Positions 8,396 through 30,596 of a DNA stretch of 64,000 bases are shown here, one piece after another. The position numbers and the translations under genes were made by a program. Numbering within the stretch: the stretch's first letter is position 1; each line of letters opens with the position of its first letter. Origin of the DNA: a virus (taxonomy: Duplodnaviria; Caudoviricetes); the IMG/VR virus record IMGVR_UViG_2675903370_000001, positions 466-64,465 of that record; one strand, given 5' to 3'. Under the pieces are notes generated by a model. It did no database searches. It was not told the origin of the DNA and worked only from the letters and a program-made list of their open reading frames with translations.

Positions 8396-8476
8396 TTATC
8401 AGCTCCGTGTTGCCGCTGGGCGGCAAGTGAATGTGTTGCTGGCGTCTGCCGTGGCGGACGCGCATTTGCAGGCGCT

Positions 8477-8834
8477 TCATTTCGCCCGGCTGCTGGGGTA
8501 GTCCAGGCTGTACTTCTGGACGATCCGCCTGATGGTGGTTCGATTGATCCCGGTGCTTCTCGGCCTGGAAGTGGCTGACGCCCAGATCGCGCATCGCCTT
8601 GATGCGCTCAAGCAGTTTCAGGTCTTCCTCCTCCTCGACATATTTCCGGTGATCCGCGCCGTTATAACGTGGCTGCCGGTGCGGCGGCTCTTTACGAGGT
8701 GGGCGGGGCGCAATACTGCATGAGCCAAGGTCGCATACCGTGCCACCGCTGCGCTGGAATTCTCTGACCGCGGCGGCCAGCCTGGATGACTGGACGCTGT
8801 TGCGCTGGATGGCGCTCAGTTCGGTAGTCATCAT
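8477..8834 (-). pseudogene. Frameshifted phage HTH-like protein
   Basis: N-terminus matches 21109-21348; after QAEK a shifted frame gives TGINRTTIRRIVQKYSLDYP, similar to the C-terminus of 17445-18032. Confidence 0.65.
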
Positions 8835-9640: not shown

Positions 9641-10010
9641 ACATCTACATGCAACCCACGGCCAACGTGGTGCAGGCCAACCTGGCGGCCGGCGACATTA
9701 TCGAAATGGTGTCGGCGGTGGAAATCATTGGTTCGTCGCGCGGCATTCTGGCTTGAGAGGCTGAGTTGACCATCACCAAGACGGTCAGCGGTGCTTCGTC
9801 CACGTTCTACTATCGGTCGATGGCAAGTACCAAGAGCCTTTCACCATGTCGGCCAGCTTTTCCGGGGCGTTGGAAACACCGCGCGGCACGATTGACCTGA
9901 GTGAAACCGTAATTACCTCGCGCATGGGCCTGTACCTGGCTGCAGGCGTGCCGCAGGACTCGACGGTCTCGACGGTCAAGGCCGCACGGTTCGGGATTCG
10001 CAAGGTTTAA
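9641..10010 (+). pseudogene. 3' remnant of SGNH hydrolase gene
   Basis: Aligns to 63639-64000; TGG>TGA at 9754, 1-nt deletion near 9825, 9-bp duplication CTCGACGGT at 9959-9976. Confidence 0.92.
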
Positions 10011-11424: not shown

Positions 11425-12459
11425 TCACCTGGTTGGAGTGACCTTTTTCCCGATCCTTTTGCGGATGTAATTCTCGGTCATCACCACGGTGGTGTGCCCG
11501 AGCTGATCGCGAGCTTGAAGGATATCGCCGCTCGACTCAGCCTTATCCGTGCCGGCTTTCGCTCGCAGGTCTCGCATCTGAAATTCTCCCTTCTCAACAC
11601 CGGCCGCCTCGCGTGCTGCGTCAAATCTCCCCCGCAACATACTGCTCGTCATGGGCTGGCCGTTATCCATGACGATCAGCCTGGAGGTGCGGATCCTGTG
11701 TCCGTCCTTCCTGGTCATAATGCGGTCAATGACCACCTTCAGATCACCTGTAATTTCAATCCTCCTTTTTGCATTCGTCTTGCCTTGCTGAACCCATAGC
11801 CTGCCGTCGCGTATATCGCGCTCATCCATTTTTAGCGTGTCCGCAATCCGCTGCCCGGTCAGATAGAAAAGATCCAGCGCATCGCGTAGAGGTTGCTCCG
11901 CATGGCTGTAAACCAAGGCAAACATTTCGTCCTCGATGTAGTGGTCTCGCCCGACCTCCTTGTGGCCCTTGACGCCCGCGCAAGGGTTGGCCAGCGCCGT
12001 GTAGCCTGCGCTCCTTGCAAAATTCCAGATAGCACTCAGTAGCGCCTTCTCCCGGTTTGCTCGGACAGGAGCCGCCTTGCCTCGCTGGCGGAGGTACTGC
12101 ACGACGTGTTGAGGTTCGATCGCTTCCAGCGGTGCTGGCGGATCGTCGAAGAACTTCAGAAGTTGCTTCAGCTCCCTGGCATTGTCTTTCTGTGTTGCCG
12201 GGCTTTTGGTGGGCACGACCTCTGCCATGTACTTTTCCGCGACATACTCGAATGTCAGCACCTGCTGGACGAGAGCTGAGGATGTTCGGCTCTTCTCCAG
12301 CTTGGCGTACTCGACGATCGCCATGCCATAGTCAGAGCCAAGTGGGATTTCCTTTCGCGGTGAACCTCCGATGTCATAGTAGTAATAGACGACCCCGCTG
12401 CGCTGTTTACGCTTTCTGAGGCGTGTGACGCTGTCGGGATTAATCGGCTTTCTTCCCAT
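11425..12459 (-). CDS. int: Tyrosine integrase
   Basis: TGQRIAD, QGKT, RDLRAK, LGHTTVVMTENY catalytic motifs; adjacent to att. Confidence 0.95.
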   Translation of the reverse strand: MGRKPINPDSVTRLRKRKQRSGVVYYYYDIGGSPRKEIPLGSDYGMAIVEYAKLEKSRTSSALVQQVLTFEYVAEKYMAEVVPTKSPATQKDNARELKQLLKFFDDPPAPLEAIEPQHVVQYLRQRGKAAPVRANREKALLSAIWNFARSAGYTALANPCAGVKGHKEVGRDHYIEDEMFALVYSHAEQPLRDALDLFYLTGQRIADTLKMDERDIRDGRLWVQQGKTNAKRRIEITGDLKVVIDRIMTRKDGHRIRTSRLIVMDNGQPMTSSMLRGRFDAAREAAGVEKGEFQMRDLRAKAGTDKAESSGDILQARDQLGHTTVVMTENYIRKRIGKKVTPTR

Positions 12460-14093: not shown

Positions 14094-16226
14094 TCACGCC
14101 GCCGCTGAGCTCACTGCTTGCATACGCCACGGATCGTTTGCTCGAGCAAGTGCAGCCATCGGTGGCGGGCTCACGCTGTTGCCGCACATGTGCACCTGCT
14201 GGGTTTTGGTGAATGGCTTGCCGTCGGCGCCGTGGGTGATGACGTAGTCGGCGGGAAAGCCTTGCGCCTTGTACAGCTCGGACGGCTTGAGCATCCGCAG
14301 GCAGATGTCGACGATCACGTAGGGCGTGCCCTTGACCATGACGGTGACCAGCGCCAAGCGATCCTTGGTTGTGATAGTTGGTGCTGGTTCGCCTGCGCCG
14401 CTGACGTTCTCGGTTCCGTAATAGCTGATAAGGAACGCAGCTACACGTAGTGCACCTTCCTCATGCTCTGGGGAGAGCCTGAGCGATACGACCGAGCTTT
14501 TACCGCCGCCACCCGCCGTCACGGTAGGCGCTGGTTCGTCCAGTTGCTGGCCTACGCTGGCGCCGAACTGCCTTTCCATGAACGCGGTTACCAGTCCGTG
14601 GTGCTGGCCGCCTGCGCTGATGGTGTACAGCGGATCGTTCACGTCCCGCGCATCACAGTTGCCGCGCAGATGCACCAGATTTGCGGCCACAAGAGCGTGG
14701 TGCTGACCAGTTGTCAGGGTCGGTACCGGACTTTCCAGGCTCGTGGGTCCGTGGCCCGTTGTGTTGGTGATCAGAGTCGCGGTCACCAGTTGCTGCTGGC
14801 TGCCAGTATTGGTGATTGTCGTCATAGGCTCGTCAGCGCCTTTGGCGTGGGTGGTGTTGAAGCCGCCGTTCATCTGAGCCATAAATGCAGTGGCCACCGC
14901 TCGATGATTCCGAGTCATCAAAGCGCCGACCGGCTGATCAGCTGCTACTGGTTTGCCTGCATAAACTGGCCCGCCAGCACCCACCAGAATCGAACTTGTG
15001 AGCGCATGCTTAACGCCACCGGCAACGATCGTCCCTAATGGCTGATCGATACCCGGCACGCGAGGCTGTTGGCCTTCGCGTTCGCCGTAGCCAGACTGGA
15101 TCAGGGTAGGGCTGATCAGCGTCAGTTCGCCGCGGTTGGCGCACGTCACCGTTGGCAGCGGCTCAAGTGGATCGTTGATGCGATCGCTGCCATGGTGGGT
15201 GGCTGGTGCGATGACTGGGCTGACGACCGAGAAAGCGCCGCCCTTTGGATATGAGGTCACCGTGCGCAGCGGCTCGTTGGCCGATTGCACCGTCTCGCCC
15301 GACCAGTTCGCGATCGGCACAATGAACGGGGCCGGGTTGTCGATGACGAACTTCTTCATGCCCTTGGCGACCCGGCGCAGGGTGGCCGGCGCCAGGTCTT
15401 TCTTGCGTCCGAATATGCTTTTGCCCAGGTCGGTGAAGTCGATGCACTCGGCGGCGGTCTTCCAAGGCTTCTGGCCTTTGGCGGGGCGCTTGGCGTGGGT
15501 CGGCTCTGGCCACACGATCGGCTCCCCATCGCAGCGGGCAATCATGAACAGGCGTTCCCGGCTGGTCGGCGCGCCGAAGTCGCACGCTCGGATCACGCGC
15601 CACTCAACCACATAGCCCAGACGCTCCAACTCGGCCACGAACACCGCCCACGTCTGGCCGCGCCGGTCAGTGTCTGGCACCAGAAACTGCTGATCGACCG
15701 GCACAACCTCACCTGGTGCGGCAATGCCGCCGCCCAGCTTCACTACCCGCCCGGTCGACTTGCAACGCTTTGCCACCAACGGCCCCCATTGCAGGATCTG
15801 CTTCACGTTCTCCAGGCTGATGACGCGGGGTTTCTTCTTGCCTGCCCACTTCAAGCCGATCCAAGACAGGTTGCGGATCTCACGCTTGCGCGGCTGCCCG
15901 CCAGCGGCCTGGCTGTGGTGGGTGCAATCCGGGCTCATGTGGAACCAGCCCACGGCCTTGCCGTCGCATTCGGTGTCCGGATCGCCGTCGAAAACATCGG
16001 TCGTGAAGTGCTTCGCACCCGGGTGATTCACGGTGTGCATGCTGATCGCCGCCGGGCTGTGATTCTTGGCCACACTAACGGTGCGCCCAAGGCCCATTTC
16101 CAGCCCGGTACCGGCGCCGCCGCCACCGCAGAAGAAGTCCACAACGATCTCATCGTCTTGCGGATTGAAGCCAAGGCCGTACTGGGTTTTAAAATCGAAG
16201 GGGTGGTTCTTCTGGTGAGCGGACAT
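14094..16226 (-). CDS. DNA cytosine-C5 methyltransferase with repetitive variable region
   Basis: DFFCGGGG (I), SPDC (IV), ENV (VI), RERLF (VIII), AQGFP (IX), GNSV (X). Confidence 0.93.
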   Translation of the reverse strand: MSAHQKNHPFDFKTQYGLGFNPQDDEIVVDFFCGGGGAGTGLEMGLGRTVSVAKNHSPAAISMHTVNHPGAKHFTTDVFDGDPDTECDGKAVGWFHMSPDCTHHSQAAGGQPRKREIRNLSWIGLKWAGKKKPRVISLENVKQILQWGPLVAKRCKSTGRVVKLGGGIAAPGEVVPVDQQFLVPDTDRRGQTWAVFVAELERLGYVVEWRVIRACDFGAPTSRERLFMIARCDGEPIVWPEPTHAKRPAKGQKPWKTAAECIDFTDLGKSIFGRKKDLAPATLRRVAKGMKKFVIDNPAPFIVPIANWSGETVQSANEPLRTVTSYPKGGAFSVVSPVIAPATHHGSDRINDPLEPLPTVTCANRGELTLISPTLIQSGYGEREGQQPRVPGIDQPLGTIVAGGVKHALTSSILVGAGGPVYAGKPVAADQPVGALMTRNHRAVATAFMAQMNGGFNTTHAKGADEPMTTITNTGSQQQLVTATLITNTTGHGPTSLESPVPTLTTGQHHALVAANLVHLRGNCDARDVNDPLYTISAGGQHHGLVTAFMERQFGASVGQQLDEPAPTVTAGGGGKSSVVSLRLSPEHEEGALRVAAFLISYYGTENVSGAGEPAPTITTKDRLALVTVMVKGTPYVIVDICLRMLKPSELYKAQGFPADYVITHGADGKPFTKTQQVHMCGNSVSPPPMAALARANDPWRMQAVSSAAA

Positions 16227-17444: not shown

Positions 17445-18032
17445 TCATTTCTCGCTTTGACGTTGCAGCGGGTAATCGATGCTGTAGTCAAGAATCAGCC
17501 GTTTGATCATCGTGTTACTCAGTCCGAGTTCGACGACGGCGGCCTTCCGCGATATACCGCGATCGCGGGCGGCTTTGATCCGCACTACGTTCACCGCGTC
17601 AGCCACCGGATCGGTTTGATAGGGAATGAGGTTCGAAGCCGGGCTGAACGCCTTGTATTCGAAGCCATGCACGCGGGCCATCTTCCGAAGTCTGTAGATG
17701 CTCACGTCAGTTTTGCGCATGACATCGGTGATCGTCATCGTCTCGGCAAGCTTGCGGATGACTTCCACCTGCTCGGCGCGGGCGTTGCAGCGGTCTTGGA
17801 TCGAGTCTTGCGGCGTTGCGGCCCGCATTGCTTCTTTAGTCCGCCGGCGTGGTAAAGGCTGGCGCGCTACCGGCGCACTCATCCGGCCGTATTCTTTTGA
17901 CTTGGGCTTCAACGGAAAGCCTTTTTGGGTTTCGATCACGCCACCGCGCTTTATGAAATCAGCCACCTTGGCCTCAAGGACGGTAGAACGCTCTTTGTTG
18001 CGCTGAATCATGCTCAGCTCTGGACTGATCAT
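17445..18032 (-). CDS. Phage early HTH-like protein
   Basis: N-terminus related to 21109-21348; two HTH-like segments. Confidence 0.7.
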   Translation of the reverse strand: MISPELSMIQRNKERSTVLEAKVADFIKRGGVIETQKGFPLKPKSKEYGRMSAPVARQPLPRRRTKEAMRAATPQDSIQDRCNARAEQVEVIRKLAETMTITDVMRKTDVSIYRLRKMARVHGFEYKAFSPASNLIPYQTDPVADAVNVVRIKAARDRGISRKAAVVELGLSNTMIKRLILDYSIDYPLQRQSEK

Positions 18033-18370
18033 CAGCTGGCACCGTATAGGGCGAACAGCGCCAGTCCGGTAGCGATGGCAGCAGTCCAGCGCAGCATGTG
18101 AGTGGCGAACGATGGCTGGCGCACGGGCTTCGCTTCCAGTTGCTCAGCGGCCTTGCAAGCCGCGCTGTGGCCTCGATGCACCCCGCGCACAGTACCGGTG
18201 GAGCGCTCGACGATGCCGAACTCGTTATTGCCGTTCGGCACGACAGTGAAGCGCGGCAGAGCTGCCGGATTCTTGCGGCCTACCTTTTCGTAAAACTCGG
18301 CAGTGGAAAGGTTGCAGCGCTGGCGCAGGCCTTCGAGGATTGCACGACGCTGGCTGATTGTCTGATGCAT
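18032..18370 (-). CDS. Phage early protein with C-terminal TM helix
   Basis: AAGGAG RBS, stop overlaps next start. Confidence 0.7.
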   Translation of the reverse strand: MHQTISQRRAILEGLRQRCNLSTAEFYEKVGRKNPAALPRFTVVPNGNNEFGIVERSTGTVRGVHRGHSAACKAAEQLEAKPVRQPSFATHMLRWTAAIATGLALFALYGAS

Positions 18371-18480
18371 ATGAGGCTCCTTGACCGCATTGGCCAGATG
18401 CCAGGCGCGGGCGACCAAACCCAGCCGTGAGACTGGCCTGGCACCTGCCGATGCGGTCGTTTGATTTGGGGGAGGGTGAT

Positions 18481-18656
18481 GCAGGGGGCCGATTTAACGG
18501 TGTGTACTCATCCGCATCGGGGTGTGATCTGCCTGTCCGGGCGCTCAGGGTTTCGGCGCGACTTGAAAGTGCATTCCGATCCGATTTCAGATCACACTCC
18601 GATGCATCCTGGCGCTATGACAGGGATCGGGCAGTTTTCGTCAGGCTGACGCTGGT
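18481..18656 (-). ncRNA. Candidate structured RNA scaffold, copy A (58-nt insert)
   Basis: 46/50 and 66/68 identity to flanks of copy B; inverted repeat 18514-18530/18589-18605; strand inferred from operon direction. Confidence 0.55.
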
Positions 18657-18794
18657 CGATTAGACAAACGCGGTCAGGATTCTCGATTCGCCGTCGTTGG
18701 GGGCATCACCTTTCAATGACGTGCTTAAAGTTTCCGACTTTGGGTCGATAGCCTGTTGAAGATGTCAACCATCATTGGAAAACAGGAAACTTAC

Positions 18795-20414
18795 ATGCGC
18801 CTTAGAAATCTCAACGTAGCTCCACGAGCTGCCCTGTTTTTCGCTTTAATAATCGCTTTGGTGTTTGTGCTAGGCGCATTCGCAGTGCTGCAAATGGGCA
18901 AGCTGAGGGACTCTGAGAAAGACGTAGAGCTCAATTGGATGGCCAGCATTCGCCAGACGGCGTTGATGAACAACGCAGCCCTTCGCCTCAGGCTGGAAAC
19001 ACAGCGCGGCCTAGCTGACCCACAATCGATTCAGAAAAACATCGAAAGCTTTGCTGGATATCGCAAAGCATTCAGTGACGCAGTGACAGGTTATGAGGCC
19101 CTCATAGCGAGCGATGAGGAACGTTCGTTTTACACACCGGTTAAAAACAGTGCTGATGCTTATTCCAAGCAACTGGATATTATCGAGCCGTTGATGAGGC
19201 AGGGGGATATTGCAGCGGCAGTCAACCAAGTGGCTACAGCCATTCGCCCTTTGACGAATACCCTGGAGCAGCAGATCAAGGACCTGACCTTCTATAACGA
19301 TAAAGGCGCAGCAAATGCTGGACAAACCGCAACCGATCTCTATGACAATGGTTTTTTGTTGGTAATTGGCCTTATCACGGGCGTGGTCATCTTGACGGTT
19401 GGATTGGCATTACTGCTGACGAAAAGTATTACTTCTCCAATTAACGATGCGCTGTCTGTGGCAGAGCGTATTGCGGCGAGTGACCTATCCAAGGAGGTAC
19501 TGGTTAGCGGGACTGATGAGGCAGGGCGACTATTGAAAGCGCTCGCGCAGATGCAGGCCAACCTCCGTTCCACAATTATGGAGATATCCGACTCGTCCAC
19601 CCAGCTGGCCTCTGCGTCAGAAGAAATGACGGCGGTCACTGAAGAGTCCAGCCGTGGTCTTGTTGCCCAAAATGACGAGGTCAATCAAGCTGCCACAGCG
19701 GTCACGGAAATGAGCGCTGCAGTTGATGAGGTAGCTCGTAACGCGGAGTCTGCTTCCGAAGAATCAAAGCGTACCCAAGGCTATACTGAGGTAGGTCTGG
19801 CGCGAGTGGCTCAAACACTGAAGTCAATTCAGAAGCTGAACGGTAACGTTGAAAACACAAGCGAGCAGATTCAGGGTTTGTCAGATCGTGCGCAAAGCAT
19901 TACCAAGGTTGTCGAGGTGATTCGGGCGATTGCAGAACAAACCAACCTGTTGGCCCTGAACGCCGCTATCGAGGCAGCACGAGCTGGCGAGCAAGGTCGT
20001 GGGTTTGCAGTTGTTGCTGACGAAGTAAGGGCTTTGGCTCATCGCACCCAAGTGTCGACGCAGGAAATCGAGCAGATGATCGCTGCCATTCAGAGCGACT
20101 CTGACCTGGCCGTAAAAGCGATGAATACGAGCAGGGACCTAGCCACCGAATCGCTGGGCGTCGCTCAAGAGGCCAGCACCTCGCTGGATCAAATATCGAC
20201 GGCTATTATCCAAATTAATGAACGCAACCTCATGATCGCTACAGCATCTGAAGAGCAGTCACATGTTGCCCGTGAGGTAGACCGCAATCTCGTCAGTATT
20301 CGCGAGCTGGCAACTCAGAGTGCTGCGGGTGCCAGCCAGACAGCAAGTGCATGCGGTGAAATGTCAAAACTCGCGGTCAACTTGAATCACCTAGTCAGCC
20401 GATTCGTTGTGTGA
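18795..20414 (+). CDS. Methyl-accepting chemotaxis protein (four-helix-bundle sensor, HAMP, signalling domain)
   Basis: Two TM helices, HAMP DEAGRLLKAL, IAEQTNLLALNAAIEAARAGEQGRGFAVVADEVR. Confidence 0.96.
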   Translation: MRLRNLNVAPRAALFFALIIALVFVLGAFAVLQMGKLRDSEKDVELNWMASIRQTALMNNAALRLRLETQRGLADPQSIQKNIESFAGYRKAFSDAVTGYEALIASDEERSFYTPVKNSADAYSKQLDIIEPLMRQGDIAAAVNQVATAIRPLTNTLEQQIKDLTFYNDKGAANAGQTATDLYDNGFLLVIGLITGVVILTVGLALLLTKSITSPINDALSVAERIAASDLSKEVLVSGTDEAGRLLKALAQMQANLRSTIMEISDSSTQLASASEEMTAVTEESSRGLVAQNDEVNQAATAVTEMSAAVDEVARNAESASEESKRTQGYTEVGLARVAQTLKSIQKLNGNVENTSEQIQGLSDRAQSITKVVEVIRAIAEQTNLLALNAAIEAARAGEQGRGFAVVADEVRALAHRTQVSTQEIEQMIAAIQSDSDLAVKAMNTSRDLATESLGVAQEASTSLDQISTAIIQINERNLMIATASEEQSHVAREVDRNLVSIRELATQSAAGASQTASACGEMSKLAVNLNHLVSRFVV

Positions 20415-20428
20415 AAAAAGGCTTTATC

Positions 20429-20572
20429 TTACCCTGCTGCTTTCCGCCTGATCCTGCCTGCAAGGTCATCTGGAGAGCATCCGGGCCGCACTCTGAGTCG
20501 CAATTCCTCTTCTCTGGCCTTCTGCCGCTTGAGTGCCATCCTCTCGTCCCGCTGTTCCTGGGTCAGGGCCAT
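20429..20572 (-). pseudogene. Truncated homolog of 8129-8395
   Basis: MALTQEQRDERMALKRQKAREEELRLRVRPG, then similarity stops at ~20480 next to the MCP gene. Confidence 0.7.
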
Positions 20573-20653
20573 TTATCAGCTCCGTGTAGCCGCTGGGCGG
20601 CAAGTAGATGTGTTGCTGGAGTCTGCCGTGACGGACGCGGCGCTGCACGCGCT

Positions 20654-21112
20654 TCATGCTGACTTGACCTGATGCCAGACCCCGGCCGCATAGAACACCT
20701 TCGCGGCCTGCGCCTCGTCGAGCGAAACCTCGGCGGGGATCGCAATCCAGCCAGAGGCCGCCAGATGGTTCTGGTTACAGTTGCCGCGTAGCTCCAGGTA
20801 GTAATGCTCGATGGCATCAGTGAGTCGGTCGACCTTGTGCAGGCCCTCGGGCGATATCTCAACGGACTTCACGTACTCAGCACCGCGCTCGTCTCGACAC
20901 ATGGCGCTGATGTAGATCGTCCATCGGTATGAGAAGTCGAAGAGGGCGTTCGCAATGGCCAGGGTGCGGATCTGCTTGTGGCTCTTCCAGTTCACCATGA
21001 CCTGCAAACCGCTTGGGTCTATATTAACCACGGCGACATGATTGGTGCTGAGCAGGGCGCGACAACTGCGTGCAGCGCGGACAAAGCAGTTGTTTTGCTT
21101 GCGGCGCTTCAT
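20654..21112 (-). CDS. Phage early hypothetical protein
   Basis: 152-aa ORF with ATGA overlaps on both sides. Confidence 0.75.
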   Translation of the reverse strand: MKRRKQNNCFVRAARSCRALLSTNHVAVVNIDPSGLQVMVNWKSHKQIRTLAIANALFDFSYRWTIYISAMCRDERGAEYVKSVEISPEGLHKVDRLTDAIEHYYLELRGNCNQNHLAASGWIAIPAEVSLDEAQAAKVFYAAGVWHQVKSA

Positions 21113-21348
21113 AGCTCCGCCGTCATTTTGCGCAGCGTGTTCCTTTCGCGGCGACTCATGGCAGGGGGCTTGCGGTTCAGCACCGTTGCCGGGTCGATCC
21201 AGTCCCTGCGCTTTGGCGGCGGCTCTGGCTTGAACACGCCCACCTGCTGAATCTTGCCGTCTTTCCGCTCGAACTCGGCGATGGCCGCAGCCAGGCGCGC
21301 GGATTCGACGCTGTTGCGCTGGATGGCGCTCAGTTCGGTAGCCATCAT
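21109..21348 (-). CDS. Phage early hypothetical protein
   Basis: ATGA-coupled to exonuclease. Confidence 0.7.
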   Translation of the reverse strand: MMATELSAIQRNSVESARLAAAIAEFERKDGKIQQVGVFKPEPPPKRRDWIDPATVLNRKPPAMSRRERNTLRKMTAEL

Positions 21349-23006
21349 GCTGCCACCTGCGTGATGGTTACTCCGTCCATTTGGAAATCAGCGCCTTGAA
21401 TGTGGACTAGGTCGTCCAGCGCGCCCCAGTTCACTGTAAGGACCGATATCGGTGCTCGACCTTCGTAGACGGCTTTCACCAGCGCATGAAGGTCGGTGAC
21501 GTTCGCTTCAAGCTTCGTCGGCTTGGGCGGCACTTTGGGTGAAGGTGCAACAGCTGACATCCTTGGTGATGCCTGTCCGACTGGTTTGGCTGTCTCAGCA
21601 GCTTGCGGCGCAGGCGCGCTGGCTTTCGCTTTTTCAGCTTCAGCGAATCGCTCTGCTTCGGTCGCGGCCGCAAGCTTCGCTGTTTCTTCAGCACGAATAC
21701 GTTCACGCTGCGCCAGCTCTTTCGCTTCCTCGGCCTGCTTGTGCTCGTTGATCCGTACCTTGATGAGGGCCACCAGGTCATCATTGTTCTTGAGCACGAT
21801 CTGCTGAGCATCGTTGAAAAGAAACGCATGATCCACGGCGAGCGAGCGCAAGCTTTCCAAGTTGGCGCGGATACCGTCGCCGATCTGGCTGGCCTCGATT
21901 TTGGCCCGGGCCAGTTCAGAGTCGGCGGCGTCACGCAGACTGGCGATATTTTTTTTGCCTTTGATCGCGCCGGCGAAGTCCGCGGGGATCTCCGGCAGCC
22001 GCACCTTGCCGCCGAACGAGGTGTTGATCTTGTCCAGATGATCACGCAGCGCTGCTTTCGCTTTCAGCACGATCTCTTCGCGAATGGCCACCTTGCGAGC
22101 TTTCACCAGCTTGTCCAGCTCAAGGCGCTTGCGTCGGGCCTGCTCCGATATTTCGTCGATGGTGCGGAAGAGGGCATCGATGGTTTCTGTCTGGCTCAGC
22201 GCGTGCTGCTTGGCTGCTTCCAGGCGCTCCTCGACTTCGCCGCACCACTTCACTGTTTTCTCTGCGTCAGCGAAATGCTGGTCGGTCTGTAGGTCAGTGT
22301 TGATCGCCGAAAACACGGCCAGCGAATGGGCCTTGAACTGCTCCAGGTTGCTTGCCGTGACCATGCCGGTGACTTCGATGCGAAGGGCTGGCAGCGAGTC
22401 GGGGGACTTCCCGACTGCCTCCGCAACGGCCTCGGTGGGCTCGTAAGCTTCAAGGTCGATTCCGAACTGTTTCCAGCCGGCAACCAGCTTCGCCGCCCGG
22501 CCTTTCACCGGGAAGTACTCCATCGAGACGAAGTTGTCTTCGGTCCCGTCCGAGCAAACGAAAATCACTTTCTCGGCACCGGACACCAGCAGTTGCTGCT
22601 CCAGCTGCCAGTAGTAATGCGCATCCAGATCACCCGCACGCACGTCGGCGGCGAGCTGCTCGTTCCACATTTTGTGCTCGAAAACGATCTCCCCCATCAT
22701 TGTGCAGCCGTCGAGGGAGGCCAGCAGGTCGCCCTCTGTGCCCACAACCGGAAACAGGTCTTCGCCGATTCGACCTTCAAGAATCGGCCGGGCCAGCGCT
22801 TCGGCTTCGTGACCCTTGTCGAACAAGTACTTCTGGACCCACCATGAGATGTCCCGGTCGAGCCCGGTCTTCTTGGCATGAAGCAGCTCGGTGCGCTTCA
22901 TCTGCTTGGATGCGCCCATCATCACCGGTGCTTCAGACGCGGTGCGATAGTTGGCGCGAAGTGCATGCCATTCGGCACTGCCCTGGGTGACTTTATGCGT
23001 CTTCAT
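21345..23006 (-). CDS. YqaJ/lambda-exonuclease family recombination nuclease with coiled-coil tail
   Basis: QGSAEWHALR, TASE, GH..E..AR, ASLDG, EHK, YYWQLEQQL. Confidence 0.9.
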   Translation of the reverse strand: MKTHKVTQGSAEWHALRANYRTASEAPVMMGASKQMKRTELLHAKKTGLDRDISWWVQKYLFDKGHEAEALARPILEGRIGEDLFPVVGTEGDLLASLDGCTMMGEIVFEHKMWNEQLAADVRAGDLDAHYYWQLEQQLLVSGAEKVIFVCSDGTEDNFVSMEYFPVKGRAAKLVAGWKQFGIDLEAYEPTEAVAEAVGKSPDSLPALRIEVTGMVTASNLEQFKAHSLAVFSAINTDLQTDQHFADAEKTVKWCGEVEERLEAAKQHALSQTETIDALFRTIDEISEQARRKRLELDKLVKARKVAIREEIVLKAKAALRDHLDKINTSFGGKVRLPEIPADFAGAIKGKKNIASLRDAADSELARAKIEASQIGDGIRANLESLRSLAVDHAFLFNDAQQIVLKNNDDLVALIKVRINEHKQAEEAKELAQRERIRAEETAKLAAATEAERFAEAEKAKASAPAPQAAETAKPVGQASPRMSAVAPSPKVPPKPTKLEANVTDLHALVKAVYEGRAPISVLTVNWGALDDLVHIQGADFQMDGVTITQVAA

Positions 23007-23890
23007 GCGGTTTCTCCGGTGATAGGAGCCATCTGGTTGATTCGGTCGATCTGATCGGCACTGAGGGTGTATTTCGATTCCAGGAAGGCGATCAGGCTTT
23101 CGGTGTCGGTCTTTCCGGTGTCGATTCCCTCCTGCCATTTGGGAAACATCGTTTCGAACTTGTCTTTTTCGTAGGCGGGAAGCTCGGACCCTTGCTGCTC
23201 CGGCTGCGGGGAAACATCTCGGAACCGCGGGGCGCTTTCCTCCAGCTCATCTGGGCTGTAAACGCCCAGAATTACGTCCGGGCAGTAGAGGCGGGACCAG
23301 CGTTTGGTCGCCAGGTACGCGAGCTGCTGGCGAGGGTCGTCAGCCCAGAGCGTGCTGTTGCGTGTACGCGCCTGAGCGAGCAACAGCTCAAGCACCCTTG
23401 GCTCGTCTTCACCGCGAAACGTTGCCCAGACCTTGACGCCCAGGCCTTCCTCGTCGGCAAGCTTCCAGCCTGGCTGCCGGTACTCACCCTTGTCGCCGTT
23501 TTTGATCACAAACTTGCCGATGACCTTTTCCCAGTTGCCGTACCACTCGTAGTGCAAGCGATCCACGACAGGTGCGCAGGTCGTGATCACGGCATTGACC
23601 AGCTGCGCCTCGTAACCCAGCACGCCATTCACCAGATGGGTTTTCTGTGCGACGGCGAAAGGGTTCATCCTCCACTGCATGGCCTGCATGACGACGGCCA
23701 GGCAATCGGCGGAATTGCCATTGAAGTGCTTCGGCAGAGTTGCTCGCCCGGTGGCCATTACTTCAGCCAGGCGCATCATCTTGTCCAGGCTGTCGCCGTC
23801 GAGGACCAAGGCGCTGGTCGAGGTGGCCGCATGCGGAAGCACATGCAAATTTTGATCGTGCGATACGGACGCAACGTTTCTTGCGGACAT
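23003..23890 (-). CDS. recT: RecT-family ssDNA annealing protein
   Basis: ADCLAVVMQAMQWRMNPFAVAQKT, LW..DP.QQLAY...KRWSRLYCPDVILGVY. Confidence 0.88.
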   Translation of the reverse strand: MSARNVASVSHDQNLHVLPHAATSTSALVLDGDSLDKMMRLAEVMATGRATLPKHFNGNSADCLAVVMQAMQWRMNPFAVAQKTHLVNGVLGYEAQLVNAVITTCAPVVDRLHYEWYGNWEKVIGKFVIKNGDKGEYRQPGWKLADEEGLGVKVWATFRGEDEPRVLELLLAQARTRNSTLWADDPRQQLAYLATKRWSRLYCPDVILGVYSPDELEESAPRFRDVSPQPEQQGSELPAYEKDKFETMFPKWQEGIDTGKTDTESLIAFLESKYTLSADQIDRINQMAPITGETA

Positions 23891-24219
23891 AGGAAATCCT
23901 CGCGCTCCATTCGGGCGCTGCGATTGGATAAGAATGGGCTTACTGAGTGATGTGCGATGCGTAAGCGCTGGCGAGCATCCAAGCGGTTACAAGAGCCAGC
24001 ACGATGAATGAGCCCCGCCAGGTGTAGATGCGCAGTTGACGCTGCTTGCGTGTCATGACCGGGCACCCACCGGCCGACGCTTGAGCCAGTCAGCTTTGAT
24101 CGGGTAGGGCAGGTCAGCAACTCGCATGCCGACGGGGTAGGTGATCGTTCCTCGGACTTGAGCGCGGGCTTTCACCTCGTCAAGTTGCTCATCAATCAGG
24201 GATTTAACGATTGGCTGGC

Positions 24220-24411
24220 TCATGCCGCCTCCTTGCGCTGTTGGCAGTGCCTCAGCAGGCGACTGCAGTAGTGGGAAAACTCTTCAAGGGTGATGAGCTC
24301 GTCGGTCATCATCTTGGTGATCATGCGCTGGACCAGAACAACCTCGCCGCGTGTGCTGGCGGGGTGCTTGAGGGTTTCGAGCGCCTCGTCGATCAGGATG
24401 TGCGGGCTCAC
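24220..24411 (-). CDS. Small phage early protein
   Basis: Overlaps upstream stop, 63 aa. Confidence 0.6.
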   Translation of the reverse strand: MSPHILIDEALETLKHPASTRGEVVLVQRMITKMMTDELITLEEFSHYCSRLLRHCQQRKEAA

Positions 24412-24815
24412 AGTTCTCCATCCTCGCGCTGGGCGATCACTCCGTCTGCCGCCAAAGGCCGCAAAAGTCCCTCTGCGATTTCGAACAGAGCGTCTTTGGG
24501 GTTGGGGCAGTTCAACACGGCGTCTGCGGCCTCTCTGGCACAGGCGGGTGAACCAAACTTTGCCATGTACACCAGTCGCCCCAGCGCCGACTGGCTCGCA
24601 CCGGATGCGCCGAGCTTCTCCATGGCGAACTCATCGACCGCAATCAGGAAGCGCTCGAATGTCACGACTTGAGGATCCTGTAGGCCGCGTTTGAACTTGA
24701 TGTCGCCGCCGTGGACCAGAGAGTGCGCACTGTTGGCAACCCAAAGTCGTTCGGCGGGTGTGAGTGCTCTCACTGGATTGTCCGCAAGAGGCAACACCTT
24801 TGCTGCTGCGTTCAT
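24408..24815 (-). CDS. Phage early hypothetical protein
   Basis: GGAGG RBS before ATG 24815. Confidence 0.7.
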   Translation of the reverse strand: MNAAAKVLPLADNPVRALTPAERLWVANSAHSLVHGGDIKFKRGLQDPQVVTFERFLIAVDEFAMEKLGASGASQSALGRLVYMAKFGSPACAREAADAVLNCPNPKDALFEIAEGLLRPLAADGVIAQREDGEL

Positions 24816-25136
24816 GTTCGCCTCCGAGGCGCATCGCGTTGGTGAACCCCTTCGACTGAACACTCAAGAACGGATAGAGGCCACACAGGCACCGGAGAGG
24901 GTTCAGTCGGAGAGGTTCGCGGGGTGGGAGGGGGCAGATGGCCGGGCGCGAATCCGGCGAGAGCGGAGCCTTTACGCACGACCGCTCTGAGGAGCAACCA
25001 GCCAAAGCTGGCGCCTATTAACCGCGTTTCTCCAGGGCCGCCGAAGCGTTCAACCCAGCTTTCAACGCCGCATCTGCTTTGCTGGTTACGTCTCCAGCGC
25101 GGACTTGCACCGCCGTGTTGATTCCCAAGGGTTGAC

Positions 25137-25351
25137 GCAGGGGGCCGCTTTCGCGGTATGTACTCATCCGCATCGGGGTGTGATCTACGCGAGGTCGTCA
25201 CCTCTGGCTTTGCCTGCCGCCGCGCTATGTCGACGGTGCTCAGTGGCTCGCCTGATTACGAGTCAGGTGCCTTGCTCCGCTGCAGATCACACTCCGATGC
25301 AGCCTGGCGCTATGACAGGGTTCGGGCAGTTTTCGTCAGGCTGACGCTGGT
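25137..25351 (-). ncRNA. Candidate structured RNA scaffold, copy B (97-nt insert)
   Basis: Inverted repeat 25170-25186/25284-25300; internal hairpins; CCGC-GAAA-GCGG tetraloop on minus strand. Confidence 0.55.
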
Positions 25352-25360
25352 GCTGGTTGT

Positions 25361-26140
25361 TCAGTCGTCGAAACCGTAAGAGAAATCGCTTTCCTCGCAA
25401 TCGATCAACAGGACAGCATTGCCAAAATAAAGCGAAGCGAGAATCCGCTCCCATTTCGAACGCAGGTTCATCGTTACCGAAATTTTCTTATCGTCGAGCT
25501 GTGCGCTGTATACCTTCCCGAATTCGACTTTCGGCCTCCAGCGGTCGCCAGTTTCTCGCTCACCCTCAACCATCACTTGCAGGTTGTGCTTCAGGCCGTA
25601 ATCGCTGCGTCGTTCATTGCTCAAGCTGTACCGGTTACCACCCTCGGGCTGTGGGTCGAAGTAAATTTGGTAGAACTTGCGAGAATGGCTGTCATCCGCA
25701 GTGATGCGAATCTCAGGCGCGCTCCACCGCTCTTCAGCGGCCTCTTCCTTGTGCTCATCAATGAACGCTTCGAGCAAATCCTTCAGCGAAATCTCACCAG
25801 TGAGCAGGCCTTCACCGGTCAATACCTCGGTGATGGATGCGTCGGCCTGTTTCATGATCGCTGATTCCATGCCGGCAGCCTCCCAGCGCTCACGCAATGC
25901 GTTGGCGATCAACGCGTTGTAGCGCTGAAGCTCGAACATGTCGGTGACATTTGCCGGAAAGGCTTCTTTTACCGCGGCTTTGATTGACTCACCGATGGTG
26001 CCGTAGGACCTGAAAGCATCCTCGACGACACTTTTAAACATCTTGTCGATGCCTTCATCGATCAGCTCGCGAGGGCGATCTGATAGGGCGTAGGTGCTGA
26101 CGCGCTCGGCCAGCAGTTGCTGAAGGGTTTGCTCGGTCAT
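25361..26140 (-). CDS. First substantial ORF of leftward (pL) operon, acidic hypothetical protein
   Basis: GGAG RBS before ATG 26140; 259 aa. Confidence 0.75.
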   Translation of the reverse strand: MTEQTLQQLLAERVSTYALSDRPRELIDEGIDKMFKSVVEDAFRSYGTIGESIKAAVKEAFPANVTDMFELQRYNALIANALRERWEAAGMESAIMKQADASITEVLTGEGLLTGEISLKDLLEAFIDEHKEEAAEERWSAPEIRITADDSHSRKFYQIYFDPQPEGGNRYSLSNERRSDYGLKHNLQVMVEGERETGDRWRPKVEFGKVYSAQLDDKKISVTMNLRSKWERILASLYFGNAVLLIDCEESDFSYGFDD

Positions 26141-26446
26141 TTGATGCTCCATGCTGGATATGGTGATTTCCCGTCTGGCCCTGTCGCCAAGGCCAGCCAG
26201 TGAAATCTGGTGTTGCACCGCGACCCGCTACTGGCGTCGGTCGCGGCTTGCTGCGTCAGCGGTAGTTGTCTCTCCCTTCTGCCGCTGGGATTCGCGGGGC
26301 GCATTGCTTGCCGGGTCATTCACTCGGTTCTGGCGTTTCACCATCGTCAGCCGTACAGGGTTCTCCCTGTCGTGGGCAGCCCTTCGGGGCTGTCTGATCG
26401 CCGGTCGCCGGTAGAGGCAATGCGTTCTGTTGTTTGTTGCGCAGGC

Positions 26447-26458
26447 TGTTAAAGAGCG
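26447..26458 (-). promoter_or_regulatory. boxA antitermination element
   Basis: CGCTCTTTAACA about 45 nt downstream of predicted pL start. Confidence 0.8.
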
Positions 26459-26509
26459 GCTCGATCCGCTGGGCCTGTTGAGGGGCTGTTTCGCGTCTCG
26501 ATGGATGCA

Positions 26510-27052: not shown

Positions 27053-27961
27053 CTAAGCGGCTTCCGATTGCAAAAGTCGATCCGCAGCCTCATCAGGGGA
27101 CTGGACCGCTTGAACACGAAGCTCATGTTTGTCTCCTGCCTCTTCCAACGCCTCAATGGAGCGACGCAAGGAGTCTATCTGGCGCTCACTGTACGTTGGG
27201 TCGTCAAAAGCAGGCCTGAAGACCACAAGCTCAAAATGAGCCCTCGGGAAGAGCTTGTCGTCTCGATCTCTAACCACCAGCAAATCAAGAAGGCGCGCTT
27301 TGTTTCTTTCGAACATGCCCGACAGCGCCGAGCCCGGTATTAGCTTTCCGGTATTGATTGCAGCCCGCTCGCTCAAGTAAAAGATTTTCGCAGGACGGGC
27401 CTTTTCCGACACCTCAAATGTTCTATTGAAGTAGCCAGAAAGCCGTGCATCTCTGTCAACAACTGCTGATTCAAAAAGTTTCGGCCACGGATCCCGATTC
27501 GAGCCAGAGCCGATATCCATGCCATCAGTTAAGTCCTCTAAATCGTTTTCGGAGTCGGAAAAGTCTAGCGCCGCCAAGCTAGCTGTCATGGATACGGCTT
27601 GACGTAGTAAACCGACTAGATCGATTGATGAGGTTTCTCTAACCCTTCCTAGGCTGACTCCGGACATAGGAGATATCCACCCATCAAAGCTAGATCTGTG
27701 CTGAAGGTGATGCTGAAGGCTTGAGCAGATGAGGCCAATCATTTTAGCCATTCCTGCCGCCTGAGCCCCAAACATCGCCTCAATTACGTGCGGACGGATA
27801 GCAGGTGATACTCGGCATTCACCATTTACACCTATGGCTGCTACGGCAACAGTGAGCCGCTCTCCGGAAGCCATCATTGGCTCCAAATAAACCGAAGCCC
27901 AGCTACCTTGGAAAGAAGGTGCTGCCGGAACTGCTTTGAGGAGGGCCTCAAAATTGATCAT
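27053..27961 (-). CDS. Kinase partner protein (DUF3037-like N-terminus)
   Basis: YLEPMMASGERLTVAVAA motif; ATGA overlap with kinase stop at 27958-27961. Confidence 0.7.
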   Translation of the reverse strand: MINFEALLKAVPAAPSFQGSWASVYLEPMMASGERLTVAVAAIGVNGECRVSPAIRPHVIEAMFGAQAAGMAKMIGLICSSLQHHLQHRSSFDGWISPMSGVSLGRVRETSSIDLVGLLRQAVSMTASLAALDFSDSENDLEDLTDGMDIGSGSNRDPWPKLFESAVVDRDARLSGYFNRTFEVSEKARPAKIFYLSERAAINTGKLIPGSALSGMFERNKARLLDLLVVRDRDDKLFPRAHFELVVFRPAFDDPTYSERQIDSLRRSIEALEEAGDKHELRVQAVQSPDEAADRLLQSEAA

Positions 27962-28707
27962 AATTTCAGCCTCCCTTGTGCAGTTGGCTTGATTTTGTGA
28001 TGGAGCATTTCGCCCAGGCTGGAGATTCGCTCTTTCAGAAAGGATATCAGTTGATTTTGAGTTTTGGACTCGAAGTGGTCGAAAATACATGTCTCCGCCT
28101 GATCGACAGCCGGTTGAGACTTGCGTTCGGCCCATTCGGCTGCTCGTCGCGCCGCTCTCTCAGTGGACAAGTCGTCCCTACAGACGCTTATCGCGAGGTC
28201 GAGAAAGCGGTTGGCATAGTAGTCATCCGACGAATCGGAAGGACGCATTCCAGATGGCAGACACAGCCCATGGTCAATCAATAGAAACCCTTGTCCGTTA
28301 AAAAGAATATTACCGTCGTGCCGGTCAGGATTGGCTATAAGCTCATCAAAGCACGCTGCAGCTAGTAGCTCAGGCCACCGTTCAAGCTCATCCAGAATCG
28401 AATTGTCCTGCGAGCTGACAAATTTTGAGATATTTGGATGTCCTGTATCGGCGCTTCCAAAGTGCCATTCATTAGAAGAGTCAAGCAGAAGCAGGGGTTC
28501 CGGGATGGGGAGGCCTGCTGACCTACCTAGAGCCGCGCAAACAACCTCGACTGCCATTTCTCGGTTTGAGATCCTCTTTGCGATGACTGCCACTTCGCCC
28601 GCCACGGTGGCAGCAATACCCCGCCATGGCTGATTTGCGCCTTCGCCTACAAGTTGACCGCCTGGTAGCAATCGCCCAATACGAATTTGAACTGGTTCTT
28701 CTTGCAT
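27958..28707 (-). CDS. HipA-like (PI3/4-kinase fold) protein kinase
   Basis: Gly-rich GEGANQP, IAK lysine, FDELIANPDRHDGNIL catalytic loop, LIDHG. Confidence 0.88.
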   Translation of the reverse strand: MQEEPVQIRIGRLLPGGQLVGEGANQPWRGIAATVAGEVAVIAKRISNREMAVEVVCAALGRSAGLPIPEPLLLLDSSNEWHFGSADTGHPNISKFVSSQDNSILDELERWPELLAAACFDELIANPDRHDGNILFNGQGFLLIDHGLCLPSGMRPSDSSDDYYANRFLDLAISVCRDDLSTERAARRAAEWAERKSQPAVDQAETCIFDHFESKTQNQLISFLKERISSLGEMLHHKIKPTAQGRLKL

Positions 28708-29125: not shown

Positions 29126-29788
29126 TCAATCGAATTTCGTCAGCGCTCTGACCACCACACCTATGATCCTGCAGTCTTCGGTGCATTGCACCATAGGGTA
29201 GGCCGAGTTAAGTGGCTTCAAGTATCTGACGCCTCCATCCTCCACCAGCTTCTTGAATGTCGCCTCGTTGCTGCCAGCCAGCTTCGCGATCACCAACTTG
29301 CCTGGGCGTACGTCTGCACGGGTGTCCACAAGGATCTGCGAGCCCTCTGGAATCGAAGGGGCAGTAGGCGCCGTCATAGAGTCCCCTTTGACCTCCAGCC
29401 AGAACGCAGGGCCCTTGGCCTTGTAGTCAGACACGTCGTAGTCATCAGAAGCACCTGGCGCGTAAGGCTCAACCGCCTCGGACCACTCGCCAGCCGCGAC
29501 CCAGCTCACCAGAGGGTATCGGTACATGCGGGTCGGCTGCTCAGCCATGGATACGTTGGAGGGTTCGTTAGACGTGATGACTGCTGTCATGTCGCCTTTT
29601 CCGTCCGAAAGCCACAGTGCATTCACGCCGCAGACGTCGGCGATCTTCGCCACATGCGCAGTTGCTTTGGATTTTCCACGCTCCAAGTCGGAAATAGATG
29701 TCTGCGTGATGCCAGCGCGGACTGCCAATTCTGCTTGATTGAGCTTTGCGTGCTGCCTTGCGGCCTTTAATCGGTCTTTAAATTCCAT
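29126..29788 (-). CDS. cI: CI-like repressor (HTH + S24 autopeptidase), probably leaderless
   Basis: RLKAARQHAKLNQAELA HTH; VAAG cleavage site, GDSM serine, TFKKL lysine. Confidence 0.95.
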   Translation of the reverse strand: MEFKDRLKAARQHAKLNQAELAVRAGITQTSISDLERGKSKATAHVAKIADVCGVNALWLSDGKGDMTAVITSNEPSNVSMAEQPTRMYRYPLVSWVAAGEWSEAVEPYAPGASDDYDVSDYKAKGPAFWLEVKGDSMTAPTAPSIPEGSQILVDTRADVRPGKLVIAKLAGSNEATFKKLVEDGGVRYLKPLNSAYPMVQCTEDCRIIGVVVRALTKFD

Positions 29789-29794
29789 CCGCTG

Positions 29795-29862
29795 AGTATT
29801 ACGGGCGCTCCCATATCCTTGCAAATCGGTGTTCCCATAATCTAGTATATGGGTATTCCCGT
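29795..29862. promoter_or_regulatory. OR1-3 operators with divergent pR/pRM
   Basis: ACGGGCGCTCCCAT 29801, ATCGGTGTTCCCAT 29825, ATGGGTATTCCCGT 29849 at 24-bp spacing; palindromic TTGCAA 29819-29824 could serve as -35 in both directions. Confidence 0.85.
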
Positions 29863-29875
29863 ATGGAGGGGCAGC

Positions 29876-30091
29876 ATGAACAGTATTTACAAGGACCTCG
29901 TTGCCTTCTTCGGCACCCAGGAGGCCACAGCTGAAAAGCTCAAAGTTGATCAAAGCACCGTTTCCGGATGGGTTCGGGAAAAGCATGGGATGTCTCCAGT
30001 AATTGCCAAGCGCGCGGAGGCTTTGACCGGAGGTGCTTTCAAAAAAGAGTCCCTTTGCCCGTCGTTTCCCTGGGCCGAAATGGCTGCTTAA
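29876..30091 (+). CDS. cro: Cro-like HTH protein
   Basis: FGTQEATAEKLKVDQSTVSGW; divergent from cI. Confidence 0.9.
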   Translation: MNSIYKDLVAFFGTQEATAEKLKVDQSTVSGWVREKHGMSPVIAKRAEALTGGAFKKESLCPSFPWAEMAA

Positions 30092-30173
30092 AAGACCGTC
30101 CCGCCGCTTCGGTGAATTGATATTGCCCAGCTTTAACGCGGGACACCACGGAAACAGAACAGAGGTTTTACGA

Positions 30174-30596
30174 ATGGAAAATTTCTTGCGGTCCTGCCAG
30201 AGCGCAGTACTCGAAAACGAGGCCAAGAGCCTGGCAGCGAAAATGGGAGTCGCTCACGTGAGCCTGCTCCAGCGCGCCAACCCAGACAACGATGCTCATC
30301 ACCTGACCATTGAGCATCTATTCGGGATTCTGCTGCACACGAATGATATGCGGCCGCTTAAGGAGCTTGCTGACGAGTTCGGCTGCGATGTCGTTGAGCG
30401 CCAGCGCCCAGCGCCTAAACCTCTGCTTGCGGCCTTGGCACATCTCGCCGCCGAGTCGGGTGACGTAAAGCGCCTGGTCTACGACGCCACTATCGACAAC
30501 CACATCAGCCAGCACGAAAAAGCCCAGGGCGACAAAGCCATTCAAGAAGCGATCGACGCGCTTCAGGTGCTTCGCGAATCGCTGAAGGCTGCTTGA
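30174..30596 (+). CDS. CII-like regulatory protein
   Basis: LAAKMGV....L...ANPDNDAHHLT; position after cro. Confidence 0.75.
   Translation: MENFLRSCQSAVLENEAKSLAAKMGVAHVSLLQRANPDNDAHHLTIEHLFGILLHTNDMRPLKELADEFGCDVVERQRPAPKPLLAALAHLAAESGDVKRLVYDATIDNHISQHEKAQGDKAIQEAIDALQVLRESLKAA

Follow-up and report, generated by a model that had tools for sequence, protein, structure and literature searches.

A pair of related non-coding elements, here called copy A and copy B, lies in the early region of a Pseudomonas prophage. The prophage was analysed as one stretch of DNA of 64,000 nucleotides (nt), the window, which is nearly the whole of a 64.5-kb provirus record in IMG/VR (IMGVR_UViG_2675903370_000001) and is kin to the temperate phages of Pseudomonas syringae. 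The gene map of the window fits the left arm of a lambda-like Pseudomonas prophage (Table 1). On the basis of this map, both copies are intercistronic and belong to the leftward early operon, on the stretch that runs from the cI-like repressor to the integrase. A preliminary description, made from the sequence alone, had placed them in this operon, and the gene map bears it out. Copy A heads the phrog_6742 gene and copy B heads the phrog_4801 gene; the prophage therefore unites two gene blocks, each of which has its own element in other phages. The rightward operon of the window contains no additional copy. Neither a sigma-70-like promoter nor a convincing terminator was found at copy A or copy B.

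Copies A and B are members of an undescribed, widespread family of modular structured elements in Pseudomonas temperate phages. In each copy, conserved flanks surround a middle part, the cargo. The left flanks (18481-18530 and 25137-25186) are identical at 46 of 50 positions, and three of the four differences fall within a small hairpin (CCGATTTAACGG versus CCGCTTTCGCGG). The right flanks (18589-18656 and 25284-25351) are identical at 66 of 68 positions; a repeat search gives 69 nt at 97%. The similarity between the copies is far above chance. The tail motif has two matches in the window, where 0.06 are expected. The middles, of 58 nt in copy A and 97 nt in copy B, have no similarity to each other. 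A 17-nt inverted repeat (GCATCGGGGTGTGATCT / AGATCACACTCCGATGC) is present in both copies; in each it departs from Watson-Crick pairing at one and the same position, which is G.T on the plus strand and A.C on the minus strand. These are the shared flanks and unrelated middles of the preliminary description, whose coordinates and counts were reproduced.

Table 1. Genes and element parts in the early region of the window, by position
Feature	Position	Strand	Remarks
Integrase, prophage tyrosine recombinase	11425-12459	-	
C5 methylase	14094-16226	-	
phrog_9129 and phrog_6742 genes	17445-18418	-	phrog_6742 ATG at 18370
Degenerate third stem-loop A'	18387-18454	-	same clamp (GCATTGG...CCGATGC); adjoins copy A
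Copy A	18481-18656	read on -	
Copy A, optional flank hairpin	18489-18500	-	CCGATTTAACGG
Copy A, stalk (18 bp) and cargo A	18514-18605	-	cargo 18531-18588
Copy A, small hairpin	18608-18624	-	
Copy A, tail hairpin	18639-18651	-	CGTCAGGCTGACG
Methyl-accepting chemotaxis protein (MCP) gene	18795-20414	+	
RecE-like gene	21345-23138	-	
RecT	23003-23890	-	
phrog_4801 gene	24408-24863	-	
Copy B	25137-25351	read on -	
Copy B, optional flank hairpin	25145-25156	-	sense RNA CCGC-GAAA-GCGG
Copy B, stalk, plus-strand 5' arm	25170-25186	-	clamp GCATCGG 25170-25176
Copy B, cargo B	25187-25283	-	97 nt, multi-hairpin
Copy B, stalk, plus-strand 3' arm	25284-25300	-	clamp CCGATGC 25294-25300
Copy B, small hairpin	25303-25319	-	CCTG-GCGCTATGA-CAGG
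Copy B, conserved single-stranded block	25322-25331	-	TCGGGCAGTT
Copy B, tail hairpin	25334-25346	-	CGTCAGGCTGACG; 5'-most in sense RNA
phrog_2600 gene	25361-26218	-	
cI-like helix-turn-helix (HTH) and S24 repressor	29126-30226	-	

The degenerate stem-loop A' ends 17 nt upstream of the phrog_6742 ATG, and its sense strand folds at -37.1 kcal/mol (z -3.25). Arrangements of the A' type also occur in loci L042, L088 and L093. Copy B is 97.8% identical to phage Medea1 over 226 nt, insert included. Cargo A belongs to a small family of three distinct members, found in L152, in L194 and in the window.

The same frame is found in at least 200 phage or prophage loci of IMG/VR, with one or two per locus. 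Two exact-pattern scans of IMG/VR with different anchors gave at least 120 and at least 119 stretches. Among phage records, BLAST finds the frame once each in Medea1, phiPSA1/PSA-2T/psageB2/psageK9 and Cruim01, and in the Pseudomonas aeruginosa phages phi1, phi2, MD8, zjk6, D14E and BR153a; in these named phages it always lies between leftward early genes. From phage and Pseudomonas DNA, 227 stem-loops were extracted. There are 204 distinct ones, and 183 once mirror detections are removed; these 183 are the set to which most counts below refer. A covariance model of the 3' domain, built from an alignment of 68 sequences, matches all five of the Pseudomonas genomes reached via the loci, at 2-6 places each. 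It also matches 54 of 151 genomes from one sample of the genus Pseudomonas (E <=1e-5), at 1-4 places each; when the unpublished genome G102 is left out, the count is 53 of 150. A general scan of contigs used a loose gapped pattern, by which only 5 of 120 rows were true elements, all from Pseudomonas, and it is uninformative on other genera. In the available text of the literature on Pseudomonas prophage non-coding RNA, on the motif strings and on tRNA-like, RNase III and temperate phage subjects, no published description of the element was found.

The members of the family share a fixed order of parts. On the plus strand these are an optional hairpin, a pyrimidine-rich linker, the clamp, the stalk, the cargo, the second arms of stalk and clamp, a small hairpin, the sequence TCGG and the tail hairpin. 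Read in the sense of the operon (the minus strand), the tail hairpin comes first; it is followed by a single-stranded block ending in CCCGA, the small hairpin, the GCAUCGG/CCGAUGC clamp and stalk with the cargo, and often a 3' hairpin. The optional hairpin is exemplified by CCGCTTTCGCGG, GGCCGGTATAAGCCGG and CCCCGGTTAAGTTTCCGGGG; it has stem variants and is missing from many members.

The clamp is a helix of 7 base pairs (bp). Its plus-strand 5' arm is GCATCGG in 135 of the 183 stem-loops and GCATTGG in 22, and its 3' arm is CCGATGC in 173. Above the clamp, the stalk is variable in sequence and conserved in pairing. For 52 distinct pairs of arms, 9.4 of the ten positions above the clamp are paired (8.9 by Watson-Crick pairs); arms taken from different elements pair at only 4.3 of 10, and 0.16% of these 1838 cross pairs reach 9. 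There are at least 11 unrelated stalk classes. Within the commonest class, both arms have changed together: GTGATCT/AGATCAC is replaced by GTGAACT/AGTTCAC, by GCGTGATCT/AGATCACGC and by GAGTGGTCT/AGACCACTC. Stalk pairing is under selection. Length is conserved as well: stalks run from 15 to 26 bp with a median of 19 bp, and 138 of the 183 have 18-20 bp (one mismatch at most being allowed). This narrow distribution suggests that a distance is being measured. The preliminary description had spoken of a constant stem, which is correct for the outer 7-bp clamp; the other ~12 bp are not constant, since their sequence changes while the pairing is kept.

The flanking hairpins behave in a similar way. 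The stem of the small hairpin has at least five variants (CCTGGT/ACCAGG, CCTGGC/GCCAGG, CCTGC/GCAGG, CTCTC/GAGAG and GCCTC/GAGGC), and the TCGG that follows it is nearly universal. RNAalifold proposes a CCGA/TCGG helix around the small hairpin, which is invariant in this anchor-selected set. The main type of tail is GGGCAGTTnnCGTCAGGCTGACG, with the compensatory variants CGACAG/CTGTCG, CGGCAG/CTGCCG and CGTGAG/CTCACG. Pairing of the tail hairpin is complete (100%) in the 68 aligned sequences, and two of its five pairs have undergone compensatory changes: UA to AU four times, UA to GC three times and CG to GC once. Its covariation score was reached by none of 500 shuffles. Other tail types have different hairpins instead, or an insertion of ~55 nt. 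Covariation, put forward in the preliminary description as a check, is strong in the stalk, the tail hairpin and cargo B.

The cargos are 26-179 nt long, with a median of 84 nt. They fall into 68 families without detectable mutual similarity among the 183 distinct stem-loops, and 31 of the families are singletons; this supports the constant scaffold with an exchangeable insert that was first proposed from copies A and B. The cargos are folded, conserved and constrained. The cargo B family comprises eight distinct sequences, one of them from P. aeruginosa phage BR153a at ~76% identity, and so spans phages of P. syringae and P. aeruginosa. On the sense strand it has 42 predicted pairs, six of which show compensatory double changes; in BR153a the clamp itself is compensatorily changed (UA to GC at pair 4/128 of the cargo B alignment). 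Cargo B occurs in 4 of 401 sampled genomes, as a single copy in each and always inside the scaffold. For this reason, the units are not dispersed mobile repeats.

In the largest cargo family a hypervariable centre lies between two hairpins, GCCGG-yGCTGATCT-CCGGC coming first and GCGC-ATCAGCCT-GCGC last. The two loops are complementary to each other (GCUGAU/AUCAGC) over 5-6 nt in 14 of 17 distinct combinations and the match is broken in three; one combination shows a concerted change to GCGAU/AUCGC. Five cargo families have D-arm and/or T-arm motifs like those of tRNA (GCTCAG...GAGC, GGTTCGAATCC). In several of these cargos the T-arm abuts the 3' strand of the stalk, in the fashion of a tRNA. 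ARAGORN, run on 206 loci, reports one of these cargos (L145) as a defective tRNA with a 6-nt anticodon loop; none of them is a genuine tRNA. Against host genomes, the tRNA-like cargos match only the generic D-arm, over 19-24 nt.

The element is also modular with respect to its neighbours. It starts ~10 nt after the upstream stop codon and ends 20-150 nt before the next start. Heuristically assigned flanking open reading frames (ORFs) group into 37 clusters on the upstream side (118 ORFs) and 41 on the downstream side (112 ORFs). Downstream, the partners that recur are phrog_6742, with a cluster of 30, phrog_3282, a small protein of the GerE/sigma-region-4 type, with 17, and phrog_4801 with 12. 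One leader is found with different cargos in copy A of the window, L088 and L093, and one stalk sequence is shared by many cargos. Within the DNA examined at each locus, two elements occur in 14 of 190 loci, often 115-300 nt apart with no gene between them, and three occur in L017. All 14 pairs combine different cargo families, which is statistically not strong given that there are 68 families. Morons abut the edge of the element: the MCP gene at copy A, and a lipoprotein-like ORF in L349. Of 176 elements, 24 have a strong sense-strand terminator within the 300 nt downstream; the background rate is 0.036 per 300 nt. In BR153a (L340, 2458-3232) such a terminator follows the element after 22 nt; the gene just upstream is annotated as a carbon storage regulator (CsrA-like). 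In Medea1 (L001) a tRNA-Met gene (3572-3649) lies on the operon-sense strand ~350 nt downstream of the element, in the same intergenic region.

There is moderate evidence, from sequence comparison, that the element acts as a sense-strand RNA. In pair sets chosen to be strand-neutral, the cargo columns with wobble pairs favour the sense strand over the other by 20 to 8 (intersection of the pairs predicted for the two strands) or 55 to 35 (their union), so that by this test the operon-sense (minus) strand is the likelier folded strand. The tRNA-like motifs of all five families read on the sense strand. The fold z-scores of the two copies are -2.4 and -3.1 on the sense strand, and -1.95 and -1.0 on the other. 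The sense strand is favoured because of the wobble bias of the cargos, the orientation of the tRNA-like motifs, these z-scores and the location of the element in a minus-strand operon without a promoter of its own.

The reading preferred here is that the element is a modular RNA of phages, encoded in a PL-type operon, and that its stalk is a scaffold on which exchangeable structured RNAs are processed or presented. It is held tentatively, with a probability of about 0.45. The element would be transcribed within the early polycistronic RNA. The upper ~12 bp of the ~19-bp stalk could have any sequence, provided that pairing holds, and the near-perfect stalk of fixed length would be recognised by an activity specific for double strands, most likely the RNase III of the host. 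The clamp and the 5' module might be read by a guiding factor. Recognition would lead to the cargo hairpin being cut from the mRNA, or presented on it; a cut would also separate the upstream from the downstream cistrons. The cargo, swapped between phages as a cassette, would act in trans, for example as a tRNA-like mimic, a decoy or a regulator in conflict between phage and host or between phages. The stalk of the family amounts to about two turns of near-perfect double strand within a transcript, at an intercistronic place, as do RNase III stalks. By analogy with the stems that free rRNAs and with RNase III sites between phage cistrons, stalk, clamp and flanking module would be a scaffold for processing or presentation, most plausibly for RNase III. 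Action as a guide or antisense RNA would be only one of several possible functions of the cargo. A role in conflict, as mimic, decoy, immunity or regulatory RNA, is suggested by the hypervariability of the cargos, by the tRNA-like ones among them and by tandem arrays whose cargos differ.

Several results weigh against this reading. The 5' module of the variant in the window is thermodynamically unremarkable (z 0.28). Wobble in the stalk is balanced between the strands, with 36 G.U-type events on the plus strand and 37 on the minus strand, beside 37 transversion mismatches; the summed consensus folding energies of 12 cargo families are likewise equal on both strands. Cargos of only 26-30 nt occur, and a complex cargo is therefore not obligatory. 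The sequences were gathered with exact anchors, so the invariance of these anchors (the clamp, TCGGGCAGTT and part of the tail) is partly by construction. As to expression, two raw-read RNA runs are without the prophage, and only a homologue of the MCP gene is touched; two sets of RNA-seq contigs cover 22078-26488 of a relative at 90-99% identity, carry neither strand nor ends and are evidence neither way. Complementarity of the inserts to phage sequences is not supported at the lengths searched: none was found at 11-12 nt or more, exact, beyond chance. Cargos and stalks share 33 complementary 12-mers with nearby phage DNA (up to ~14 kb of flank per locus), six of them from the twin copies themselves; ~21 are expected, and this is no enrichment. 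Within the window, no exact complementarity of 12 nt or more to the cargos was found.

The chief competing explanation is that the element works only in cis, between the cistrons of the early mRNA, as a site of processing, stability or insulation or as a checkpoint of termination and antitermination; its apical part would then be functionless in itself. RNase III sites between the early genes of T7, and the N-leader, sib and tL1 region of lambda, are models for such an element. The setting described above agrees with it: the element always lies between cistrons of the leftward operon, at short distances from the stop and start codons, and heads gene blocks as varied as those of phrog_6742, phrog_3282 (sigma/LuxR-like) and phrog_4801. 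Some members are simple long hairpins with tops of 26-30 nt. The terminators found within 300 nt, and the one 22 nt from the element of BR153a, suit a checkpoint. However, the cargos are conserved and covary across distant phages, the complementary loops have changed in concert, and tRNA-like arms occur. Two or three elements in tandem with no gene between them would be needless for a separator of cistrons. Moreover, 68 unrelated cargo families lie inside flanks that can be aligned across the family, which indicates active exchange rather than drift. A purely cis-acting element is unlikely, if still a serious competitor.

It is improbable that the element works at the level of DNA, as a single-stranded hairpin serving as a structure-specific site of recombination or priming (in the form of attC), or as a conserved linker for the exchange of modules. 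The layout is like that of attC, in that the 7-nt outer boxes are constant and the inner stem, which is paired, and the loop are variable; the stalk is free of strand-specific wobble bias. Homology between phages breaks exactly at the edges of the element, where the morons abut (the MCP gene and the lipoprotein-like ORF of L349), and in the window the element precedes recombination genes of the recET type. On the other hand, no dedicated recombinase accompanies the element and its neighbours are diverse; the prophage integrase is the only tyrosine recombinase seen in the window, and the family is flanked by ordinary early phage genes. The small hairpins, the loop-loop pairing and the tRNA-like arms are features of folded RNA, the wobble bias of the cargos is toward the transcribed strand, and the clamp sequence is unlike attC core sites. 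Lambda-like phages are not known to pass through a single-stranded stage at this locus.

An antisense RNA read from the plus strand, opposite the early genes, is very unlikely. It would account for the conserved non-Watson-Crick position in the stalks of the window and for the frequent GCATTGG/CCGATGC clamp, both of which are G.U on the plus strand, as are positions in several variants of the small hairpin. Yet no promoter-like site was found on either strand, nor a terminator by which such a transcript would be delimited. The independent events in the stalk are balanced (36 versus 37), and both the wobble bias and the tRNA-like motifs of the cargos favour the other strand. Insertion of different miniature transposable elements (MITE-, REPIN- or Correia-like) at a single favoured target is largely refuted. 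Inverted repeats of 15-26 bp at the ends of a short interior might speak for it; against it are the single-copy occurrence of cargo B within the scaffold, the compensatory evolution of the arms inside a homologous stalk class and the lack of stalk or cargo copies elsewhere in the examined loci beyond chance.

If the modular RNA scaffold reading holds, these phages have a common and unannotated structured RNA, present in about a third of the sampled species genomes, of unusual design, in which folded RNAs are displayed interchangeably on a fixed frame. Such an RNA would add a further layer to the early programme of the phages, might account for some of the non-coding space that phages of plant and clinical pseudomonads have, and would offer a natural scaffold for the expression of small structured RNAs. 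The hypervariable cargo with its tRNA-like members makes a conflict role directly testable. Even as a mere processing site, the element would be a conserved landmark for annotating early-left operons and the boundaries of their modules. A bolder proposal, which is quite doubtful, is that of an RNA cassette system. Here a universal scaffold would carry folded RNAs swapped by recombination, such as tRNA mimics and three-way junctions with kissing loops, and each phage would hold one to three cargos as a fast-evolving arsenal of decoys, mimics or regulators against RNA-targeting defences of the host or against rival phages. If true, this would be an RNA counterpart of integron cassettes or of anti-defence gene islands.

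Some further features of the window should be noted. The MCP gene looks like a moron. It is complete, with 4HB_MCP, HAMP and MCPsignal domains (phrog_8572), and lies on the opposite strand within the early-left operon, abutting copy A. A similar gene ('HAMP domain') lies close to the repressor in phages MR13 and MR15. Downstream of copy A, the phrog_9129 protein (17445-18032, minus strand) weakly matches an HTH_28 domain as well as DNA invertases (phrog_125, E 1e-4). An ORF at 27958-28707 (minus strand), in the interval from copy B to the cI-like repressor, is weakly similar to HipA-like kinases (E 3e-5, under the Pfam cut-off).

Repeats are found elsewhere in the window. Left of the integrase, pieces of 48-300 nt in 8304-9640 are 85-96% identical to parts of 20481-22210, mostly in the RecE-like gene. 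The 380 nt at 9631-10010 resemble the right end of the window (63629-64000) at 88-89%. The repeat pairs span 8304-9654 with 20481-22210, and 9631-10010 with 63629-64000; they may reflect part of a second, related prophage in the record, or a tandem arrangement. In the late region, an intergenic repeat occurs at 42879-42908, 54312-54350, 54963-55001 and 61434-61472. It comprises a terminator-like hairpin with a T-run, followed by conserved GCCTGGAGAAA(A/C), and is possibly a shared unit of terminator and ribosome-binding site.

The element was compared with known classes of RNA and DNA. With Rfam 15, the whole window has no match at gathering scores. The two copies, searched at E <=10, give only chance rows of microRNA, small nucleolar RNA and long non-coding RNA, and five loci with tRNA-like cargos, searched at E <=1, give only terminator-like Trp_leader rows elsewhere. 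The element thus matches no Rfam 15 family, among them C4, put-like RNAs, Y RNA, tRNA and ribozymes; the preliminary description had not recognised it as a named family either. A tRNA gene is rejected, since ARAGORN finds none in 125 element stretches and none in the window, the only hit being the defective tRNA in the cargo of L145. Retron msr-msd and Y RNA (YrlA) were rejected: the provirus record has no match to the PF00078 reverse transcriptase, and none to PF05731 (TROVE/Rsr), for which the controls were positive. A repeat of the MITE or REPIN type was rejected from the occurrence of cargo B. A small peptide was rejected as well; short frames start at the ATG of the clamp (CCGATGC), and neither frame nor length is conserved between the copies.

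The Pas small RNAs (sRNAs) of enteric lambdoid prophages are conventional base-pairing sRNAs in Escherichia and Shigella, and the abstract on them mentions no shared scaffold into which structured inserts are swapped (Zhu, Shabalina and Storz, bioRxiv 2026, 10.64898/2026.05.13.724894). There is a loose parallel in that both would be non-coding RNAs at conserved places of lambda-like prophages, with copy number and sequence varying between strains. YrlA has a long stem formed from its two ends and a tRNA-like module, is bound by Rsr/Ro and is present in some phages. The present elements resemble it in an end-formed long stem that can carry a tRNA-like module; they differ in that only a minority of the cargos are tRNA-like.

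Integron attC sites are folded single-stranded DNA, used with the IntI integrase, and flank gene cassettes. They share with the element constant 7-nt outer boxes, a complementary inner stem of variable sequence, a top of variable length and exchangeable cassettes. However, the core sites of attC have the consensus RYYYAAC / GTTRRRY, and the outer boxes found here (GCATCGG and CCGATGC, in 135 and 173 of 183) are not attC core sites. In the present family, the unit exchanged is the top of the hairpin itself, and there are covarying mini-hairpins, kissing loops and tRNA-like arms.

The immunity RNAs c4 of phages P1 and P7 and CI of P4 lie in the transcripts of early or immunity operons. They have a closing stem with hairpin loops that give specificity by complementarity to targets in their own transcript, and are processed from the mRNA by RNase P. 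The element resembles them as a probable non-coding phage RNA embedded in an early operon, in which a closing stem carries hairpins. Here, however, there is no Rfam match, no complementary targets of 11-12 nt or more were found nearby, and the scaffold sequence and the ~19-bp stalk are unlike c4. The presence of the same leader with different cargos argues against cis targets.

RNase III stalks, which include the stems of rRNA operons, the early intercistronic sites of T7, and the lambda N-leader and sib sites, are long stems defined by structure; those of rRNA release a functional RNA. The elements described here have the same long and near-perfect stem inside a predicted polycistronic transcript. 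They differ from these stalks in a constant 7-bp clamp, two flanking hairpins and a fixed length, and in that the enclosed RNA is replaced by unrelated ones.

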